Virus record (IMG/VR): IMGVR_UViG_2718218171_000002
Location: 1-39,731 of that record
Length of the DNA: 39,731 bases
Source of the DNA: a virus
Lineage: Duplodnaviria > Heunggongvirae > Uroviricota > Caudoviricetes
Reading direction: 5' to 3' (one strand)
Shown here: one piece after another, positions 1,317-27,038 of the stretch
How positions within the stretch are numbered: position 1 is the stretch's first letter
How the letters are laid out: each line of letters begins with the position of its first letter
Notes under the pieces: model-generated
Database searches by the model: none
The model's input: only the letters and a program-made list of their open reading frames with translations
What the model was told of the DNA's origin: nothing
Made by a program: the position numbers and the translations under genes

Positions 1317-2053
1317 TTCACCTCCTGCGGAGGTTCTGGTAGCGGCATCCAGTGTGTGACATTGCTAATCAGGTCATATTCATTAGTTTGAGGATGGTTG
1401 CCGCTATCATCTCCATATTTAAGACTCTCCATAAAACCATAATGCTTATTCCCATTAACTCTCACAAAGCCGTAATAAGCAGGTATAACGCCGATCTCAC
1501 ACGTAACCAGTAAAGGAAAACTAGTTCTCCAATTTAGCTCGCCAATTACAGGCATTCGCTCACTACAGCTTATCCAACCATCCGGAGTTACCGGAGAGTT
1601 GCCACCGGGAATATTTTCCGGAATATTTTGTTGTGCGTTTTGTGGTTGTTCGGATTTACCCTGAAGCATGGCGGCGCGGCAGGCGTTCCAGCCAGCTGTT
1701 CGCCCAAGCGCGTAAACTTCAGATGGCTCAAGATAATCAATGTCATGCCCATCCTCATCGTCGTTCTCAGGTAATGCAGCAGGTACTACCGGTACTGGCG
1801 GAGCGGCGTAGACTTCAATAATCCCATTATCAATAGGCCATTCCCCATCCTTGATGTAGTCACTTGTGCCGTCAACTTGCTGTTCTGCAATGTGGAATGC
1901 GCCAATAGGCTCTGCTTCCAGCGATGCCAGTGCAATACGCAGGGCAGCCAGGATATTCCCCTGGTAATCATCAAGCCCGAAAGGAAGCTCATCACGAACG
2001 CTTTCATAATCGTTGATAGCCTGCTGCAGCCATTCTCTTGTGATAGTGCTCAT
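1313..2053 (-). CDS. DUF551-like prophage protein
   Basis: 246 aa; C-terminal WMPLPEPP motif typical of DUF551; ATGA start/stop overlap with upstream gene. Confidence 0.55.
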   Translation of the reverse strand: MSTITREWLQQAINDYESVRDELPFGLDDYQGNILAALRIALASLEAEPIGAFHIAEQQVDGTSDYIKDGEWPIDNGIIEVYAAPPVPVVPAALPENDDEDGHDIDYLEPSEVYALGRTAGWNACRAAMLQGKSEQPQNAQQNIPENIPGGNSPVTPDGWISCSERMPVIGELNWRTSFPLLVTCEIGVIPAYYGFVRVNGNKHYGFMESLKYGDDSGNHPQTNEYDLISNVTHWMPLPEPPQEVK

Positions 2054-2724
2054 GATGCCTCTCCTTTACATGCTTCGGTGACGTTTATTCCAGCGTTGTG
2101 CAGTGCCTCAAGAACCTGATGCTGCCTGTAAACCATTTCAGTGTGGTAAGGCTCGTCAAAATCGACGCGATGCAACATGCTATAGCATTGCGGAAGCACA
2201 ACCTCCCGCAACTCCAGCTCAGCAATGCGCTTCTCTGCGGCTTCCAGCTTCTCGCGCATATCATCAACGTACTCGACCAGAGATCCGCCAGCAGGAATTT
2301 CGCACTCCTCGACCAGTTGGAAGTAGATATCAGCTGCGGCCCGTGTGCTGCTATGCCTAGCGTCGCCCATCTCACCTTCACGAAGAGCATCGCGTTCGGC
2401 GGTAAGATTGGCTATTTTGCTGTCTTTGCCTTCCAGCTCAACGCGCAGCTTCCCTACCGTTAGCGCAATTTCCTCGTTCTCCTGGTCGCGGGATTTGATG
2501 TATTGCTGGTTCCTTTCCCGTTCATCCAGTAGTGCCAAAGCAACCTTTGGATTAAAGGCAGCAATAAATTCAGCGTTGTTTTTCAGAACGTGTTGCGTAA
2601 TCGCCTGACTACTTAGTCGGACCTCATAACCACGTGCGCCACGGTGTGGTTTATATGAGTCCCAGTCTCCCCACGTTGCCTTCTCTGCCGCCTCACGCAG
2701 TGCCTGATAGTCAATCTTGCTCAC
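2050..2724 (-). CDS. Ead/Ea22-like protein
   Basis: 224 aa; N-terminus [16 protein letters not shown] and coiled-coil resemble Ea22-like prophage proteins; GTG start with AGGAGG RBS. Confidence 0.55.
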   Translation of the reverse strand: MSKIDYQALREAAEKATWGDWDSYKPHRGARGYEVRLSSQAITQHVLKNNAEFIAAFNPKVALALLDERERNQQYIKSRDQENEEIALTVGKLRVELEGKDSKIANLTAERDALREGEMGDARHSSTRAAADIYFQLVEECEIPAGGSLVEYVDDMREKLEAAEKRIAELELREVVLPQCYSMLHRVDFDEPYHTEMVYRQHQVLEALHNAGINVTEACKGEAS

Positions 2725-3260
2725 TGGTTTCCTCCTTTGCGAAGCTGGTCGGCGAACAAACGTACACCAGACGCTTCACTGCGTAGAAACTTAACGGCAT
2801 AATCAAAACCACCTCGTTCTGCGTCGTCTGCTCCGTTGTCGAGGTTATCTGCGTACATCTCTACCCCCTGCGCCCGTACTTCAGCCAGGAAAGCATCGGT
2901 GGCTTGGGTTTCTTCAAGCGCTCGCTTAACCTTTTCCTCAGCTTCGCAAATTGACTGAACCCAGAAGTCAGCGTGAGGTGGCCTGCCTGCCTTTTTTATC
3001 TCCGCACGAAGCTCAATTTGCTGAGTTACCGCAGATTTCAGCCTCGCATTCTCCGCCGCCAGCGCCTCGCACTTGGCTTCAAGGTTATCAATCGTGATTC
3101 CGGAAGAACGACACTCACGAAACGCCGTTTCTAGTTTTGATTCAAGTTCACCGAACTTACGCACCAGATATTCAGCGTTTGTTTCGTTAACCTTTAAATC
3201 ACTTGGGATGCATTTACCTTTCAGAAATCCATCCATCTCAATTAGTGACATTTGTTTCAT
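2721..3260 (-). CDS. hypothetical coiled-coil protein (179 aa)
   Basis: ORF in operon context; ATGA overlap with upstream small ORF. Confidence 0.5.
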
Positions 3261-3421
3261 TTTTTCCCACTCCGCAACATCGCATTCAGATATTTGTTTT
3301 GATTTACTGACGGAAAAGAATTTCTCTTAAGCAATTCCTCTCTCGATGGCATTGGCTTTACGCGTTGGCGAATAATCATTTCTGCCGGAAGAATGCCGGG
3401 ATTGTATGCAAGTCCTCTCAT
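3257..3421 (-). CDS. small hypothetical protein (54 aa)
   Basis: ATG preceded by AGAGGA RBS; stop overlaps next start (ATGA); below the ORF-track length cutoff. Confidence 0.3.
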
Positions 3422-18975: not shown

Positions 18976-19464
18976 ATGGCAGCACCAAAGGGCAACCGAT
19001 TTTGGGAGGCCCGCAGTAGTCATGGGCGAAATCCTAAATTCGAATCGCCAGAGGCGCTGTGGGCTGCTTGTTGTGAATACTTCGAGTGGGTGGAAGCTAA
19101 CCCGCTATGGGAGATGAAGGCATTCTCGTATCAGGGTGAAGTGATACAAGAGCCTATCGCCAAGATGCGAGCGATGACTATTACAGGCCTCACTCTGTTC
19201 ATTGATGTGACGCTTGAAACATGGCGCACATATCGCCTGCGAGAAGATTTATCTGAAGTCGTTACGCGAGCAGAACAGGTCATCTACGACCAGAAATTCT
19301 CTGGCGCAGCCGCTGACCTTCTCAACGCTAACATCATCGCCCGTGATTTGGGCCTCAAAGAGCAGTCGCAAGTTGAAGACGTGACACCTGATAAGGGAGA
19401 TCGCGATAAGCGACGCTCTCGTATCAAGGAGCTATTCAACCGTGGAACTGGACGCGATTCTTGA
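18976..19464 (+). CDS. 3: terminase small subunit (P22 gp3)
   Basis: 162 aa, near-identical to P22 gp3 as remembered. Confidence 0.85.
19243..19261 (+). other. putative pac site inside the small terminase gene
   Basis: GAAGATTTATCTGAAGTCG matches the P22 pac core as remembered. Confidence 0.45.
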
Positions 19465-20941
19465 TAACCTGAGCGACGAAGAGCAAATCGAATTGCTCGA
19501 GCTACTCGAAGAAGAAGAGAACTACCGGAACACACACCTGCTATATGAATTTACGCCATACAGCAAACAGCGTGAGTTCATCGACGCCGGGCATGACTAT
19601 CCAGAGCGCTGTTTTATGGCTGGTAACCAGCTTGGCAAGTCATTTACTGGTGCTGCTGAAGTCGCGTTTCACCTTACCGGGCGTTATCCGGGCACAAAAG
19701 GCTATCCTGCTGATGGTAAATATGGCGGGGAGTGGAAAGGTAAGCGTTTCTATGAGCCTGTTGTCTTCTGGATTGGCGGAGAGACAAACGAGACTGTAAC
19801 CAAAACGACTCAACGCATCCTGTGCGGTCGTATAGAAGAGAATGGTGAGCCAGGCTACGGTTCCATACCGAAAGAGGACATCATTAGCTGGAAGAAGTCT
19901 CCTTTCTTTCCGAATCTTGTTGATCACCTTCTGGTTAAGCATCACACGGCTGATGGCGTTGAAGATGGCATTTCAATCTGCTACTTCAAACCATACTCGC
20001 AAGGCCGTGCACGCTGGCAGGGTGACACAATCCACGGCGTGTGGTTTGACGAAGAACCACCATACAGCATTTATGGCGAAGGGCTTACCCGTACCAACAA
20101 ATACGGGCAATTCTCAATTCTGACGTTTACCCCGCTGATGGGGATGTCTGACGTTGTTACCAAGTTCCTGAAGAATCCCAGCAAGTCGCAGAAAGTGGTC
20201 AACATGACCATCTACGACGCTGAGCACTACACCGACGAGCAGAAAGAGCAAATCATCGCATCCTATCCCGAGCATGAGAGAGAGGCGCGTGCTCGCGGTA
20301 TTCCTACGATGGGTAGTGGTCGAATCTTCCAGATACCGGAAGAGACGATTAAGTGTCAGCCGTTCGAGTGTCCTGATCACTTCTACGTAATTGGCGGGAT
20401 GGATTTCGGATGGGATCACCCACAGGCGCAGGTTCAGCTTTGGTGGGATAAGGACGCAGACACAATCTACGTTTCACGCGTGTGGAAGGCGAAAGAAAAA
20501 ACAGCTGTTCAGGCATGGGGAGCTGTTAAATCATGGGCGCATAAAGTGCCAACCGCATGGCCTCATGACGGAAACCAGCATGAGAAGGGCGGCGGTGAGC
20601 AGCTCAAAGGGCAGTATGCAGACGCTGGATTTATGATGTTACAGGAGCATGCGACATGGCCTGATGGCGGTAATGCTGTTGAGCCTGGCATCACTGAATT
20701 GCGCGACATGATGCTCGATGGTCGCTTCAAAGTATTCAACACCTGTGAACCATTCTTTGAGGAATTCCGCCTCTATCACCGTGATGAAAACGGGAAGATA
20801 GTCAAGCTTAACGACGACGTGCTATCCGCCGTTCGCTATGCATACATGATGCGCCGCTTCGCAAAAATGATGCGCGACATCAAAAAACCAAAAGAGAAAA
20901 AGATACCAGCCCCAATCAGGCCCATCGCACGGAGAACTTAA
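19442..20941 (+). CDS. 2: terminase large subunit (P22 gp2)
   Basis: 499 aa, P22 gp2-like; GTG start overlapping the end of gene 3. Confidence 0.9.
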
Positions 20942-23107
20942 ATGGCCGACGAAAACAGACTCAATTCCATTCTGTGTAAGTTTGACGCAGACTGGATGGC
21001 GAGCGATGAAGCCAGAACCGAGGCGACAAATGACCTGTATTTTAGCCGAGTGTCGCAATGGGATGACTGGCTATCAAACTACACCACCCTGCAATATCGC
21101 GGACAATTCGATGTTGTTCGCCCGGTGGTCAGGAAGCTGGTCGCAGAGATGCGCCGGAACCCTATCGACGTTCTCTTCAGACCAAAAGACGGCGCTAATC
21201 CTGATGCTGCCGATGTGCTGATGGGGATGTATCGTACTGATATGCGCCATAATACGGCAAAAATTGCCGTTAACGTTGGCGTTCGTGAGCAGATAGAGTC
21301 CGGCGTTGGTGCATGGCGTCTGGTCACGCAGTACGAAGACAACGATCCAACAAGCAACAATCAGGTAATCCGACGCCTGCCAATCCATGAAGCCTGCTCA
21401 CACGTCATATGGGACGCCAACAGCAAGCAGATGGATAAGAGCGACGCTAAGCACTGCACGGTGATTAACGCTTTGTCACGCAATGGCTGGAAAGAGTTCG
21501 CAGAGGATTACGGTATTGATCCGGACACGCTGCCATCTTTCCAGAATCCGAACGACACATGGCTGTTTCCGTGGGTATCGAATGATGTCGTCTACGTCGC
21601 CGAGTATTACGAGGTAGAAGAGAAGAAGGAGAAAGTCTTCATCTACCGCGACCCGCTGACAGGTGAGCCGGTCAGCTATTACCAGCAGGATATTAAAGAC
21701 GTTATCGACGACCTGGCTAATCGTGGATTCATTAAGGTAGCAGAGCGCAAGGTGAAGCGTCGGCGTGTGTATAAGTCGATCATCACCTGCACGCAGATAC
21801 TGAAAGATCGCGAGAAGATAGCCGGAGAGCATATCCCAATCGTTCCAGTGTATGGAGAATGGTCATTTGCTGGTGACAAGGAGTGCTACGAAGGCGTGGT
21901 AAGGCTGACGAAAGACGGTCAACGCCTTCGTAACATGATCATGTCGTTCAACGCCGATATTGTTGCTCGTTCACCGAAGAAGAAACCGACCTTCTTCCCT
22001 GAGCAAATCGAAGGCTACGAATACATGTACGGTGGAAATGATGACTATCCGTACTATCTGCAGAACAGGACCGATGAAAACGGTAACGACCTGCCGATTG
22101 GTCCAATCTCCTACATGGAAAACCCTGAAGTGCCGCAAGCCAACGCTTACATGCTTGAGGCTGCCACCAACGCAGTGAAAGAGGTGGCTAGTCTTGGCGT
22201 GGATGCACAGGCAGCAAACTCTCAGGTCGCTTTCGATACCGTCAATCAACTGAACATGCGGTCAGACCTTGAGACATACGTGTTTCAGGATAACCTGGCT
22301 ACCGCAATGCGGCGTGATGGCGAGATTTATGCCTCAATGGTCAATGATATTTATGACGTTCCTCGTCATGTAACGCTGACACTCGAAGATGGAAGCGAGA
22401 AAGACGTTCAACTCTATGCGCAAGTTGTTGATTACCAGTCCGGCAATGTGGTCACACTCAACGACATTCGCGGTCGCTATGAGTGCTATACAGACGTTGG
22501 GCCATCCTTCCAGAGCATGAAGGAACAGAATCGCGCAGAGATTCAGGAGTTGCTAACCAAGGTTCCGCAAGGTACTCCAGAGTTCCAGATGCTGATGCTG
22601 CAATACTTCACGTTGCTTGACGGTAAAGGCGTCGAGATGATGCGAGAGTACGCGAACAAGCAACTGGTGATGATGGGGCTGAAGAAACCAGAAACGCCTG
22701 AAGAGATGGAGATAGTGCAGCAGGCACAACAACAGCCGCAGCAGCCATCAGCAGAGCAAATTCAGGCGCAGGGTATCCTTCTGCAAGGTCAGGCTGAATT
22801 GCTCAAGGCAGAGAACCAACAGGCGCAGATTCAGGTTGAAGCTGCCAAGGTTGAAGCTCAAAACCAACTCAACGCCGCGAAGATTGCAGAAATCTTCAAC
22901 AATATGGACCTCGACAAGCAGGCAGAACTGCGTGAGTACCTCAAGCTCGTAGGTCAATTCCAGCAACAGCGCAGCAAAGATGCTCGTGCTAACGCTGAGC
23001 TGCTTCTTAAAGATGCAGACCAGACTCATTCACAACGCATGGATTTCGCGAATCTTATGCGTCAAGTTCAAATCCCCTCCGGCGGAGTAGCCGAGACACC
23101 TCAATAA
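20942..23107 (+). CDS. 1: portal protein (P22 gp1)
   Basis: 721 aa, P22 portal-like with Gln-rich C-terminal barrel segment. Confidence 0.9.
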
Positions 23108-23120
23108 GAGAGAGTTAATC

Positions 23121-24032
23121 ATGGACCAAACCACCGACATTCAGGCTTCTGAAGAATTAACCCTGCCCGGCAATCATGCAGCGGCATCTGCTGATGGCTT
23201 AGTTGTCGATAATGCCAACGACAACGCAGGTCAGGAAGAAGGCTTCGAGATTGTCCTGAAAGACGATGAGAAACCAAAACAAGACCCGGCAACTAATGCT
23301 GAATTTGCCCGTCGCCGCATCGAACGCAAACGCCAGCGTGAGCTTGAGCAGCAGATGGAAGCGGTTAAGCGTGGAGAGTTGCCGGAGCACCTGCGGGTGA
23401 ACCCTGAGTTACCAAAACAACCAGACCCTAACGATTATCTTTCCGAAGATGCACTGGCTAAGTACGACTATGACCAGAGCCGCGCACTGGCTGCCTTCCA
23501 GCAGGCAAACAGTGAATGGCAGATCAAGGCTATGGACGCACGAAGCCAGGCTGTCGCCGAGCAGGGTCGCAAAACTCAGGAGTTCACCCAGCAATCAGCG
23601 CAATACGTCGAGGCAGCCCGTAAGCACTACGACGCAGCGGAAAAGCTCAATATCCCTGACTATCAGGAGAAAGAGGATGCATTCATGCAACTGGTGCCGC
23701 CAGCAGTCGGTGCCGACATCATGCGCCTCTTCCCGGAGAAATCCGCTGCTCTCATGTATCACCTTGGTGCTAATCCTGAGAAAACACGCCAGTTGCTGGC
23801 GATGGACGGGCAATCCGCGCTGATTGAACTCACTCGACTGTCAGAACGTTTAACTCTCAAGCCTCGAGCCAAACCTGTTTCAGAAGCCCCGCTACCTGAT
23901 GAACCCATTCAGGGACACGCTGTTGCTGCAAATATATCTGCGATTGAAAAGCAGATGGAAGCGGCAGCAAACAAAGGGGATGTAGAGACATACCGCAAGC
24001 TCAAGGCGCAACTGAATAAAGGAATTCGATAA
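23121..24032 (+). CDS. 8: scaffolding protein (P22 gp8)
   Basis: 303 aa, P22 gp8 size and sequence. Confidence 0.85.
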
Positions 24033-24554
24033 TTATTTCGATATCGTGATGTTGTTTTCCTCGTCAAACTTTCTGATTACTTCTCTCGCCTCTTCGAATG
24101 AAGAACATACTTTTTGCACTCTTGCATTAAGCAGTCGCTTATGAGCGATCCATCTTTTCCGCGTGTTGCAAAAGTAAACTCCAGATATTCCGCTGGAGTT
24201 ATTTTTAGATAGTTTGATTCTATTCCTTTGGTTTGCTGATTTTTTCACAAGACGAAGATTTTCAATTCTGTTGTCGTGGCGAATCCCATTTATATGGTCA
24301 ATTTCCATGCCTTCTGGAATATCTCCGTTAAACATCACCCATACGATGCGGTGTGCTAGCCACTTAATGCCGTTAATTCTTATGCGGATATATCCATTGC
24401 TTTCTAAAAGACCAGCAACTTTCCCAGCGTGTTTTGCATTCCAAACGTTGTGATAGTTGCGATTCTTTTTGTTGTTGAAAAATTCAGAGCTTCTGGCTTT
24501 CCAAACCAAAGAGCCATCGCGGTATTCGAAGTATTCATTCAGTTCCATGCTCAT
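24033..24554 (-). CDS. HNH homing endonuclease (HNH_3 plus AP2-like DNA-binding domain)
   Basis: 173 aa; motif EIDHINGIRHDNRIENLRLV and C-terminal GISGVYF..RKRW; AT-rich; antisense to the late operon. Confidence 0.75.
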   Translation of the reverse strand: MSMELNEYFEYRDGSLVWKARSSEFFNNKKNRNYHNVWNAKHAGKVAGLLESNGYIRIRINGIKWLAHRIVWVMFNGDIPEGMEIDHINGIRHDNRIENLRLVKKSANQRNRIKLSKNNSSGISGVYFCNTRKRWIAHKRLLNARVQKVCSSFEEAREVIRKFDEENNITISK

Positions 24555-24561
24555 AACCCTA

Positions 24562-24598
24562 ATGCGCTATATGTTGATATAACAATAGTATAGCGCAT
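24562..24598. repeat. 10-bp perfect inverted repeat (ATGCGCTATA / TATAGCGCAT) between HNH start and coat RBS
   Basis: Read directly from the sequence; 16-17 bp spacer. Confidence 0.6.
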
Positions 24599-24621
24599 AA
24601 AGAAAGTAAGGTATTCAATAT

Positions 24622-25917
24622 ATGACTCTCAAAGAAGGGCAGTTAGTTACTTACGCTATCGATGAAATCATCGAAACCATCCAGAACCTGACGCCAATGG
24701 CGTCCAAAGTGACAAAATACACCCCTCCGGCAGAATCCATGCAACGTTCAAGCAACACCGTGTGGATGCCTGTTGAGCAGGAAGCGCCAACTCAGACTGG
24801 CTGGGATTTAACTGGCAACGCAACCGGGATTCTGGAACTCTCCGTGAAATGCAATATGGGCGATCCGGATAACGATTTCTTCGAGCTTCGTGCAGATGAC
24901 CTGCGTGATGAGCGTTCTTACCGTCGCCGCATCCAGGCATCCGCCAAAAAACTGGCGAATAACATTGAGTCAGCGATTGCCAAACAGGCAACTGAAATGG
25001 GCTCGCTTGTTGTTCACGATACCCGCGCAATTGGTCCATCTACTGGCCTGTCTGGCTGGGATTTTGTGTCTGATGCAGAGCGCCTGATGTTCTCCCGTGA
25101 GCTAAACCGCGATATGGGCATCAGTTACTTCCTGAACCCTGACGATTACCGCAAAGCAGGCCGCAACCTGGTAGATGGTGACATCTTTGGGCGCGTTCCT
25201 GAAGAAGCGTATCGTAACGGTACTATTCAGCGCCAGATTGCTGGCTTTGATGAAATTCTTCGCTCACCGAAACTTCCGGCAGTTACCAAGTCAACCGCTA
25301 CTGGTGTAACTGTTTCTGGTGCGCAGAAGTTTAAGCCGCAGGCATACACCCTTGATACCGATGGTAACAAAGAGAACGTCGACAACCGTGTTGCAACGGT
25401 GACCGTATCCTCCACCACCGGATTTAAGCGCGGAGACAAAATCAGCTTCACTGGTGTGAAATTCCTGTCTCAGATGGCGAAGAACGTGCTGACTGATGAT
25501 GCTACTTTCTCAATCACCCGTGTGATCGATGGTACTCACATCGAAATCACGCCGAAGCCGATTGCGCTTGATGACTCTTCACTGACAAAAGAAGAGAAGG
25601 CTTACGCTAACGTAAACACCTCTCTTGCTGATTCCACTCCGGTAAACGTTCTGAACGTGGCAACAACCACCGCCAACGTGTTCTGGGCTGATGACTCAAT
25701 CCGCCTGCTGTCTCAGCCGATTCCGGTAACCCATGAACTGTTTGCTGGCATGAAAACGTCTTCCTTCAGCATTCCTGGTATTGGTGTTAACGGCATCTTC
25801 GCAACGCAGGGTGATATCAATACTCTGTCTGGTAAGTGCCGTATTGCTGTGTGGTATTCAGCATGTGCTGTACGGCCAGAGGCAATTGGTGTTGGTCTGC
25901 CTAACCAGACCGCGTGA
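24622..25917 (+). CDS. 5: major capsid (coat) protein (P22 gp5)
   Basis: 431 aa, P22 coat-like throughout. Confidence 0.9.
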
Positions 25918-25925
25918 TAACCAGA

Positions 25926-25946
25926 GGGAGCTTCGGCTCCCTTTTC
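25926..25946 (+). terminator. intrinsic terminator after coat gene (UUCG tetraloop hairpin)
   Basis: GGGAGC-UUCG-GCUCCC followed by TTTTCTATT. Confidence 0.6.
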
Positions 25947-25960
25947 TATTGGAGATACCA

Positions 25961-26560
25961 ATGAGCGTAATGATTTTTCAGGCTGGCGGAGATACCAAAA
26001 TCTGGGGGCGCAAGCTGAAAACGAAAACCGTTGATCCTGATGATGTAGCTGTGCACTTAGCAAATGGCTGGTATAAGCACCCTGACGATGTTCCTGATGA
26101 TCCTCTTGTTGGTGATCAAATTGGGAATGTTGGCGGAGGTGAAACTTCCCCAGTTGATATGGGCGAAGTGTCCGACGGTTATCACACTTTTAACGAGCTT
26201 TACGCTCACCGAGTGCGACTCTTCTCATCGCTGATGCATGCTTACGCTGAGTTTTCGTGGTGGTCTCGCAAACACAGTGACGGTGAAGAGTGGGATGGCT
26301 GGATCATTGCTGGTATCACCACTCCAGAAGGCGAAATCACTTATCACCTACCTGTTGAAGAAATCGAGTTCCTTCCTGAAGGTACTGAGCTTGAGTTCGG
26401 GAAAGAGTGGGATGGTCATGAAGCAAATGATGTTCTTGGACGACTCCTGAGTTTGCGTCCGGCTATTGCAGAGCCAGAGCCAGAGCCAGAAGAAAAACAG
26501 CGTAAAAAGCCTGGTCGAAAACCTAAGGCGGCAGCAGATGAACCTGACAACGAAGGGTGA
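25961..26560 (+). CDS. hypothetical protein (199 aa) between coat and gene 4
   Basis: ATG preceded by GGAG RBS just after the coat terminator; C-terminal EPEPEPEE plus Lys-rich tail; overlaps gene 4 start. Confidence 0.5.
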
Positions 26561-27038
26561 TTTAGTTCTTGCGGCATTACGTAAGCTCGGTGTGGCATCA
26601 AATGCCACGTTAACCGATGTCGAACCTCAGTCCATGGAAGATGGTGTCAACGACCTTGAAATGATGATGGCTGAATGGCTTGGCGGTGATGCGTCACCAG
26701 GTATCAACGTTGGCTACATTTTCGCTGATGCAGATGTCGCTCCGGATCCGGGCGATGAGCACGGTTTATCAAATAACGCTATCAATGCCGTCATTTTTAA
26801 CCTTGCCTGCCGCATTGCTCCAGATTATGCGCTGGAAGCGTCTGCAAAACTTATAACCACTGCCAGATACGGGAAAGAGCGACTCGTCAAACTGTCTGCA
26901 ATGGATAGGGCAAAAGCCGCTAAATGTAAGTCCGGTTATCCAAACCGTATGCCTGTTGGTAGCGGTAACCAGTTGGCGAAGTGGAACGGTTGGAATTACT
27001 TCCACCGGAAGGAACCTTGCGATAACGGGGGCGAATAA
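26538..27038 (+). CDS. 4: head completion / tail accessory protein (P22 gp4)
   Basis: 166 aa; [25 protein letters not shown] block matches P22 gp4 as remembered. Confidence 0.8.

Follow-up and report, generated by a model that had tools for sequence, protein, structure and literature searches.

A probable free-standing HNH homing-endonuclease cassette between the scaffold and coat genes of P22-like phages

Why does a gene for a small HNH protein lie in antisense between the scaffolding and coat protein genes of a P22-like phage? The question is raised by IMG/VR virus record IMGVR_UViG_2718218171_000002, of which positions 1 to 39,731 (the whole 39,731-nucleotide stretch that was analysed, called here the window) form a P22-like, Lederbergvirus-type genome whose portal (20942-23107), scaffold and coat genes match their Pfam families at 540-600 bits. 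An original prediction, made from the letters of the window alone, proposed that the gene is a free-standing homing endonuclease within the core structural operon. Comparison with related genomes supports that proposal, because the insert is optional, precisely bordered and carried by a minority of otherwise interchangeable genomes, and an insert in the same antisense slot recurs in three other lineages. We read positions 24033-24621 as a cassette for a free-standing HNH homing endonuclease, specialised for the P22-like scaffold/coat junction, with a probability of about three in four.

A comparison of this junction in relatives had been named beforehand as the decisive check; it returned empty sites as the majority state, a result that favours homing. 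Among phage isolates, Dewey and Louie carry the insert at 99% identity, whereas HZ41, APC_JM3.2, CurroJimenez_Bas106 and IME10 lack it (590 bases fewer) and are 97% identical to the window in both flanks. The site is empty in four of six distinct close phage genomes (6 of 8 GenBank records), and the window's scaffold protein shares 99.7% amino-acid identity with that of the empty-site phage Bas106. This type of junction was found in 216-217 of 5,426 complete E. coli genomes, where 218 records divide into 19 filled alleles, 8 hybrid empty alleles (described below) and about 191 standard empty alleles. IMG/VR contigs gave 11 filled, 3 hybrid and at least 117 standard empty alleles. Rather than being fixed in all relatives, the insert is carried by about 9% of their junctions, and empty alleles predominate in the phage, E. 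coli and IMG/VR sets alike. Most known copies are carried by E. coli prophages. The isolates Dewey and Louie form plaques (PMC12243541), and the filled arrangement is therefore compatible with normal growth.

Two copies of the gene that were inactivated independently of each other were also identified. One, in a metagenome contig (OHBN01012218; L273, 308-347), has a 20-bp deletion of the E-I-D-H-I-N codons that contain the D-H catalytic motif. The other, in the E. coli EEC_W5 prophage (L206, 2501-2520), carries a 1-nt deletion just before the catalytic motif; this single-base deletion could be a sequencing error.

The borders of the insert are exact and identical in every filled allele. An Rfam scan of positions 23700-25000 returned nothing relevant, with no group I or group II intron and no known RNA element, and the HNH gene is a free-standing open reading frame (ORF) that lies inside neither an intron nor an intein. 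Divergence between filled and empty alleles was computed from 27 filled copies (18 distinct) and 86 empty ones. The two classes differ by 1.39% over the 500 bp to the left of the insert and by 1.83% over coat nucleotides 60-560. Diversity within each class is the same (1.3-1.9%), and the cassette therefore shares one recombining pool of flanks with the empty alleles. Variable sites among 13 filled genomes number 8 of 522 in the insert, 24 of 533 in the scaffold flank and 37 of 579 in the coat flank. The low variability of the insert would fit a recent spread into varied backgrounds.

One short region departs from this pattern. At the start of the coat gene the divergence between filled and empty alleles rises to 23.5% (coat nucleotides 1-60), and the window has 15 mismatches to empty alleles within 24622-24700 as against about one per 60 bp elsewhere. 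No cluster of substitutions was found on the scaffold side of the insert in the filled/empty alignments. The standard empty coat gene begins ATG GCA TTA AAT GAA GGT CAA CTG GTC ACG TAT GCT CTG GAT, and the filled gene begins ATG ACT CTC AAA GAA GGG CAG TTA GTT ACT TAC GCT ATC GAT. The changes in this tract comprise seven synonymous codons and three residue replacements (A2T, N4K and L13I), and the tract is invariant in 13 filled copies except at one site in one copy. The stretch bound to the cassette is only about 40 bp long.

Within the tract, coat codons 5-7 read GAA GGG CAG and codon 10 reads ACT or ACA in all four filled lineages, whereas GAA GGT CAA and ACG stand in every standard empty allele, whether of the E. 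coli or of the Salmonella (P22) type. The pattern used to retrieve empty alleles fixed AAN GAA GG, and the positions free of retrieval bias are those after GAAGG. We place the putative recognition or cleavage site over coat codons 4-10 because GGG CAG and ACW in filled alleles are opposed to GGT CAA and ACG in empty ones. The recoded tract is probably a self-protecting, non-cleavable version of this target. For annotation, the case shows that the first 13 coat codons of a filled genome are, in evolutionary terms, part of the mobile cassette and not of the local coat gene.

A third class of allele combines features of the other two. In these hybrid empty alleles the insert is absent, the junction and codons 2-3 are of the empty type, and codons 4-13 are of the filled type (ATG GCA TTA AAA GAA GGG CAG TTA GTT ACT TAC GCT ATC). 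Hybrids were found in three IMG/VR contigs (L169, L180 and L197) and in eight E. coli genomes (for example NZ_CP026199, 4315709-4315859). They encode a coat subtype with a one-codon indel near residue 140 (PSSTDLSG, compared with PSTGLSG in the window and Bas106) that is 96-97% identical to both other classes. The hybrid may represent the variant into which the HNH gene first inserted, or it may be a repair or crossover product of a filled and an empty allele near codons 3-4. Under either origin, it is presumably an insert-free, uncuttable allele of the kind that a homing cycle predicts.

The same slot is occupied in more distant relatives. A search space of 5.8 billion proteins yielded homologues at 82% (P0002), 74% (P0003) and 59% (P0004) identity, in the lineages L199, L200-L204 and L205, respectively, and each is encoded antisense between P22-type scaffold and coat genes. 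The stop codons abut again in two of these three lineages, and the spacers between HNH and coat starts are 60-67 nt long. Beyond these three, full-length relatives show about 49% identity at most and occur in other phage types and contexts. A scan of genome contigs for further slot-specific lineages recovered only relatives at 49% identity or less in other contexts, and a scan of metagenome contigs recovered more 99% copies, one 74% copy and one deleted copy with no new lineage in the slot. A search of the phage collection for close relatives of L201 or L205 with an empty site found none. Identities to the window for scaffold, HNH and coat proteins are 74, 82 and 89% in L199, 74, 74 and 72% in L201, and 51, 59 and 68% in L205; by these figures the nuclease has diverged roughly in step with its neighbours. 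A recent import of the recoded coat tract from an L199-like donor was considered and rejected, as the identity between the window and L199 in the tract, about 82%, does not exceed that in the HNH gene or in the remainder of coat.

The ratio of non-synonymous to synonymous substitution (dN/dS) between the window and the 82%-identical homologue in L199 is 0.06. For other pairs of lineages synonymous sites are saturated and non-synonymous divergence is 0.17-0.26. Within the population, five of the eight polymorphisms in the HNH gene are synonymous. Together these values point to strong purifying selection on the HNH protein. They also argue, along with a reading frame that is intact in the window and nearly all other copies and with invariant catalytic residues, against the view that the gene is an inert relic, a decaying ORF with no present activity. 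The two inactivated copies speak for that view, which we consider scarcely credible for the cassette as a whole.

Purifying selection and a position kept in four lineages would also be expected of a domesticated helper, that is, of a protein with a role in morphogenesis such as a packaging-associated HNH protein like HK97 gp74, or of a regulator of scaffold or coat expression. The location in the head-assembly module agrees with such a role. However, the gene is absent from about 90% of close relatives that are themselves functional phages or prophages. It does not lie beside terminase: portal and scaffold come in between, and the large terminase gene (19442-20941) is about 3 kb upstream. P22-type phages package DNA by a headful mechanism, which also counts against this role. 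Finally, the protein belongs to the HNH_3 family with an AP2-like tail and the general HNH family PF01844 is unmatched. A helper function is thus highly improbable.

The HNH part of the protein, as originally predicted, is clear: residues 66-110 match Pfam HNH_3 (PF13392) over profile positions 2-46 of 46 with 78 bits (cut-off 24.8; E = 4e-22), and the protein also matches PHROG 99, 'HNH endonuclease' (1.8e-50), and homing-endonuclease models in PADLOC. The only significant solved relative by sequence is I-HmuI of SPO1 (PDB 1U3E; E = 8e-4, residues 35-120). An AlphaFold model built on 88 homologues has a mean predicted local distance difference test score of 89.7, and its best PDB match in Foldseek is again I-HmuI, with a probability of 1.0 and a root-mean-square deviation of 3.7 Å over 115 columns, yet with E = 2.5e-3 and a TM-score of 0.39. 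An N-terminal beta-rich region precedes the catalytic core (D86-H87, N99 and N108), which is modelled as a beta-beta-alpha fold with strands 83-87 and 100-104 followed by helix 105-112. H68, D86, H87, D94, N95, R96, N99, L100 and N108 are invariant in 88 of 88 homologues, and D86, H87, N99 and N108, among them the catalytic His and the metal-ligand Asn residues, are likewise invariant in the four slot-specific lineages.

The AP2-like part of the prediction is a fair description of the modelled fold and falls short as a family assignment. The C-terminal domain (residues 126-166; strands 126-129, 134-140 and 145-150, helix 153-166) is predicted to have AP2 topology, and Foldseek relates it to Plasmodium and Toxoplasma AP2 domains with probabilities of 0.57-0.93 and weak E values (0.02-0.17). 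A precomputed PF00847 match is present on several homologues. The Pfam AP2 profile (PF00847) scored 15.4 bits on the window protein, or 18.0 bits on the isolated C-terminus, against a cut-off of 33.3, and aligned over the first 19 of its 54 positions. The label 'AP2-like' is therefore justified by the model, whereas membership of the AP2 family is not shown. A second HNH copy was sought in the window and none was found (best other match, E = 1.4). With the HNH protein as query, tblastn gave two matching places each in Dewey (PQ850600) and Louie (PQ850616), so that these phages have a second, more distant HNH-like sequence.

The coordinates of the junction are collected in Table 1. The layout originally described, a minus-strand, AT-rich insert of about 590 bp whose 173-residue ORF has its stop codon against that of scaffold and its start about 65 bp from coat, agrees with what is seen. 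The guanine-plus-cytosine content is 0.38-0.39 inside the insert and 0.49-0.57 in the flanks; the scaffold TAA (24030-24032) and the HNH stop (complement of 24033-24035) stand back to back with zero bases between them; and the spacer between HNH and coat starts (24555-24621) is exactly 67 nt. Alignments of filled and empty alleles give one base more than the length of the insert itself because the overlap between the scaffold and coat genes is lost. From about 8.7 kb onwards, all other substantial ORFs of the window, the portal, scaffold, coat and tail genes among them, are on the plus strand, and late transcription therefore crosses the HNH gene in antisense, as had been proposed.

Table 1. 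Positions of the cassette, its flanking genes and associated sequence features in the window.
Feature	Position	Strand	Description
Optional insert	24033..24621	-	589 bp; HNH gene plus 67-nt spacer
HNH endonuclease ORF	24033..24554	-	173 aa; 171 aa if the start is at 24548
Scaffolding protein gene, gp8 type	23121..24032	+	upstream neighbour; Pfam Phage-scaffold, 596 bits
Coat (major capsid) gene	24622..25917	+	downstream neighbour; Pfam P22_CoatProtein, 549 bits
Left copy of coat translation-initiation region	24019-24032	+	last 14 nt of scaffold, AAGGAATTCGATAA; from filled/empty alignment
Right, diverged copy of coat initiation region	24608..24621	+	AAGGTATTCAATAT; 11/14 identical to 24019-24032
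Insert-linked divergent tract	24625..24660	+	coat codons 2-13; 14/36 bases differ from standard empty allele
HNH Shine-Dalgarno	24557..24560	-	AGGG on minus strand; read from sequence
Inverted repeat/hairpin	24562..24598		arms 24562-24571 (ATGCGCTATA) and 24589-24598 (TATAGCGCAT); 10/10 complementary; 17-nt loop
Predicted -10 box of HNH promoter	24587..24592	-	TATACT on minus strand; inside upstream hairpin arm

The scaffold TAA overlaps the coat ATG as TAATG in empty alleles, an overlap that is annotated in the loci of Bas106, IME10 and APC_JM3.2 (scaffold 1122-2033, coat 2033-3328), and the final codons of scaffold contain the coat Shine-Dalgarno sequence (AAGGAATTCGATAATG). In the filled allele the coat Shine-Dalgarno is TAAGG (24607-24611), within a region that includes the diverged second copy of the scaffold end, and the four insert-bearing lineages all have the same AAGGnATTCnAT motif upstream of their coat ATG. 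The insertion thus abolishes the stop-start overlap of scaffold and coat and supplies a replacement initiation region. A likeness of the scaffold end to the 3' end of the HNH gene ('TTCGATA') was dismissed as a chance resemblance that is not conserved in the other lineages.

The start of the HNH gene itself may differ from that of the longest frame. The AGGG lies 2 nt from the first ATG (24554) and 8 nt from an ATG at the third codon (24548-24546). At the equivalent position the three other lineages have GAGG, GAGGG and GGAG, with a spacing of 5-8 nt to their first ATG. The third codon may thus be the real start in the window, giving a 171-residue product.

The short spacer holds a structure of its own. 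The perfect 10-bp inverted repeat noted originally is present in the window, and a perfect repeat that long arose in 6 of 5000 shuffles of its spacer, but perfection is private to the window: position 24595 is G only here and A in 12 other aligned filled copies and in both inactivated copies, so that at least 14 other copies have a 9/10 repeat. Repeats lie at the same place in L199 (TAATGCT, 8-nt loop), L200 (ATACTCTT, 7-nt loop) and L205 (GCTTGTATAA, 9-nt loop), and were matched in 810, 87 and 8 of 5000 shuffles, respectively. The spacers of the four lineages differ strongly in arm sequence and loop length.

On the minus strand, a predicted -10 element within the upstream arm is conserved while the arms change, as TGCTATACT in the E. 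coli type (including Dewey) and in L200, TGCTATAAT in L199 and TATAAT in L205. The other aligned copies have the extended -10 TGCTATACT; the window has CGC there, G24595 turning TG into CG. The base that perfects the repeat should therefore weaken the promoter, if the predicted promoter is real. A consensus promoter scan of positions 23800-24900, which needs a -35 box, gave no -35/-10 promoter for the spacer. Where the -35 box would be, the spacer has the diverged copy of the junction sequence. I-TevI represses its own promoter through an operator that resembles its homing site (PMC2988022), and by analogy the spacer palindrome could be an operator.

Folding of the spacer RNA allows the two strands to be compared. 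HNH-sense and coat-sense folds have stabilities of -15.3 and -11.7 kcal/mol in Dewey, -15.2 and -10.9 in L199, -16.4 and -10.2 in L200, -13.7 and -13.5 in L205, and -17.2 and -17.1 in the window (z-scores -4.35 and -4.2). The HNH-sense fold is thus the more stable by 3.6-6.2 kcal/mol in Dewey, L199 and L200. At its base, the HNH Shine-Dalgarno pairs with the complement of the coat Shine-Dalgarno, an arrangement that between divergent genes arises partly by construction.

An alternative is that the repeat acts on the plus-strand late mRNA, as a processing or stabilising hairpin or as an insulator that keeps the coat ribosome-binding site from pairing with the 520-nt antisense stretch and so offsets the lost translational coupling. 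It is located 9-25 nt upstream of the coat Shine-Dalgarno in all four lineages, viable filled phages must still make much coat protein, and in the window the two folds are equally stable. However, the plus-strand folds of Dewey, L199 and L200 are weak (z-scores -1.4 to -2.0), and with the consensus A at 24595 the stem has a C-A mismatch in plus-strand RNA but keeps a G-U pair in minus-strand RNA. Neither strand has a run of T after the stem, and the hairpin is therefore not an intrinsic terminator. We consider a plus-strand function unlikely, if still plausible as one use of the repeat. Inside the HNH ORF, at 24177-24200 on the plus strand (codons for SSGISG), the consensus scan, which also covered terminators, gave a separate terminator-like hairpin with an 8-bp stem, four G-C pairs and a following ATTTTTAG. 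L199 has a weaker form of it, but it is not conserved in L200 or L205 and is therefore probably incidental.

Together these features allow a cycle to be proposed for the cassette as a homing element. Filled and insert-free genomes would share a cell, either by co-infection or when a phage infects a lysogen, and the enzyme would bind the insert-free allele. Its recognition site would most likely lie over coat codons 4-10 (AAY GAA GGT CAA ... ACG) and possibly reach back across the TAATG, and the enzyme would nick or cut the empty allele there. Recombinational repair, with the filled genome as template, would then copy in the cassette together with the altered coat tract beside it; the filled allele itself would escape cutting since its site is both split and recoded. 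A sigma-70 promoter of the extended -10 type, located on the minus strand within the spacer hairpin, would drive expression. RNAs begun at this -10 would start in the loop and lack the upstream arm, leaving the HNH Shine-Dalgarno free, whereas longer minus-strand RNAs would fold and hide it.

Several points weigh against this proposal or parts of it. The target site is deduced wholly from sequence differences between filled and empty alleles, and cleavage, nicking and homing by the enzyme are predictions. The AAY at codon 4 is partly imposed by the retrieval pattern, which does not apply to GGT CAA and ACG. The tract could be an old natural variant of coat that the gene first entered, instead of a protective recoding; the hybrid alleles fit both of these readings and sit on a slightly different coat subtype. 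The predicted promoter has no good -35 box, the best candidate being TTGAAT at 20 nt away, and the consensus scan gave no promoter there. In addition, the proposed translational gating presupposes a source of longer minus-strand transcripts. Lastly, that the HNH gene has diverged in parallel with its flanks could also reflect vertical inheritance over a long time, with occasional loss, and not only active homing.

It is also conceivable that the gene serves the phage that carries it. It could be a moron-like nuclease, expressed by the lysogen from its own host-type promoter while the late operon that it opposes is silent, that cuts the coat start of incoming insert-free P22-like phages, with spread of the gene as a by-product. 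Antisense orientation, a separate sigma-70-type -10 and a low GC content are typical of independently expressed prophage additions, and E. coli prophages hold most known copies. A benefit to the host phage would make the long-term purifying selection easier to account for, and PADLOC lists the matching homing-endonuclease models among defence-associated proteins. On the other hand, only about 9% of junctions carry the gene, the flanks of filled and empty alleles are undifferentiated, and inactivated copies exist. Furthermore, the linked recoded tract is predicted by selfish homing, whereas exclusion alone needs none. As the primary explanation we regard such a prophage weapon as improbable. 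An exclusion role is nonetheless compatible with all the data, and homing and exclusion may coexist.

One way in which they might do so is for the cassette to be expressed from a repressed prophage by its own extended -10 and to cut superinfecting insert-free P22-like phages at the coat start, some of which would be destroyed and others converted by repair from the prophage. We offer this as a speculative, rather doubtful extension of the homing proposal. If it is true, homing runs from the chromosome to the incoming virus, in an arena that is the lysogen rather than co-infection, and the element doubles as an exclusion system. The promoter within the hairpin would then keep the nuclease silent on read-through RNA.

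Among known endonucleases, I-HmuI is the nearest solved structure by both sequence and fold. The two share the D-H ... N catalytic arrangement and a small modular build with a separate C-terminal DNA-binding module. I-HmuI is encoded within a group I intron of a DNA polymerase gene and nicks one strand. In contrast, the window gene is intergenic and free-standing with no intron detected, its C-terminal module is AP2-like where that of I-HmuI is a helix-turn-helix, and the identity between the proteins is about 22%.

The two-module architecture itself is shared with HNH-AP2 endonucleases of phages and cyanobacteria (HNH_3 plus AP2; PHROG 99). PF13392 and PF00847 occur together in many database homologues of 35-50% identity, and relatives are encoded in more than 2000 phage records, in particular those of T1-like, Klebsiella and Salmonella siphoviruses. 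The window protein is placed in this widespread phage group of HNH_3/AP2-like proteins. Its own AP2 match is below threshold, and outside the scaffold/coat slot its nearest full-length phage homologues are only about 49% identical to it. We know of no member of this HNH-AP2 subgroup with a mapped target, and none appeared in the literature searched.

In their genetics, the closest parallels are free-standing endonucleases of the T4 family (mobE, SegB, SegF and SegG), which are intergenic, are present or absent among relatives, cut the genome that lacks the endonuclease and co-convert flanking markers (PMC2988022, PMC2790892). For I-TevI, I-TevII, I-TevIII, segB and Aeh1 mobE the promoter lies within a hairpin whose base hides the ribosome-binding site (PMC2988022), a geometry that is also predicted for the spacer described here. 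The antisense orientation of the window HNH gene likewise has a precedent, in that T4 segD is antisense to its neighbours (PMC2988022). The differences concern the host, a temperate P22-like podovirus or prophage rather than a virulent T-even phage, and the predicted promoter, a host sigma-70 extended -10 in place of a T4 late promoter. The window gene also splits two genes of the late structural operon that overlap translationally, and it carries with it a second ribosome-binding region. The Seg proteins belong to the GIY-YIG type, and mobE, which is an HNH protein, has no detectable close relationship to the window protein. Recent comparative studies of ICP1 and of lactococcal Skunavirus phages report that HNH genes are associated with the borders between exchanged segments (PMC10448857, PMC12724721); the short divergent tract beside the window insert is a signal of the same kind. 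The phage groups and the nuclease subfamilies are different.

Within a variable region at 25918-26500, a gene at 25958-26560 on the plus strand encodes a protein of about 200 residues with a WDGH domain (Pfam PF25311, 134 bits), between coat and the gp4-type tail accessory gene (26466-27038). This stretch does not align to Dewey, Bas106, IME10 or APC_JM3.2, which have a shorter and different sequence there, and a WDGH gene follows coat in L205 too. The interval between coat and gp4 is a second variable slot in the head module. Among 13 aligned filled copies, four bases are private to the window: G24595, C24085 (R157 versus K), A24679 (coat I20 versus V) and T24855.

In GenBank the gene already bears the label 'HNH endonuclease', both for Dewey and Louie and for E. 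coli prophages. The genome announcement of Dewey and Louie does not discuss it (PMC12243541), and no description of the element was found in the literature searched; Casjens and Thuman-Commike 2011, which is the principal comparison of the assembly genes of P22-like phages, may mention it. Beyond the original prediction, the present analysis adds the linked recoded tract, the duplicated ribosome-binding region, the three classes of allele, the long fidelity to one slot and the correction of the inverted repeat.

What is understood of free-standing homing endonucleases comes, to our knowledge, almost wholly from work on virulent T-even phages. The element described here offers a temperate and genetically tractable setting with three natural classes of allele (filled, empty, and empty but recoded). 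Filled isolates (Dewey and Louie) and an empty one (CurroJimenez_Bas106) grow on the same E. coli K-12 host, and the predicted target is narrowed to about 20 bp. The biology is expected, yet the system is unusually clean, and it makes testable how such an element invades and persists in prophage populations, how it is expressed against a strong convergent late transcript, and how the loss of a stop-start overlap is tolerated by the phage.

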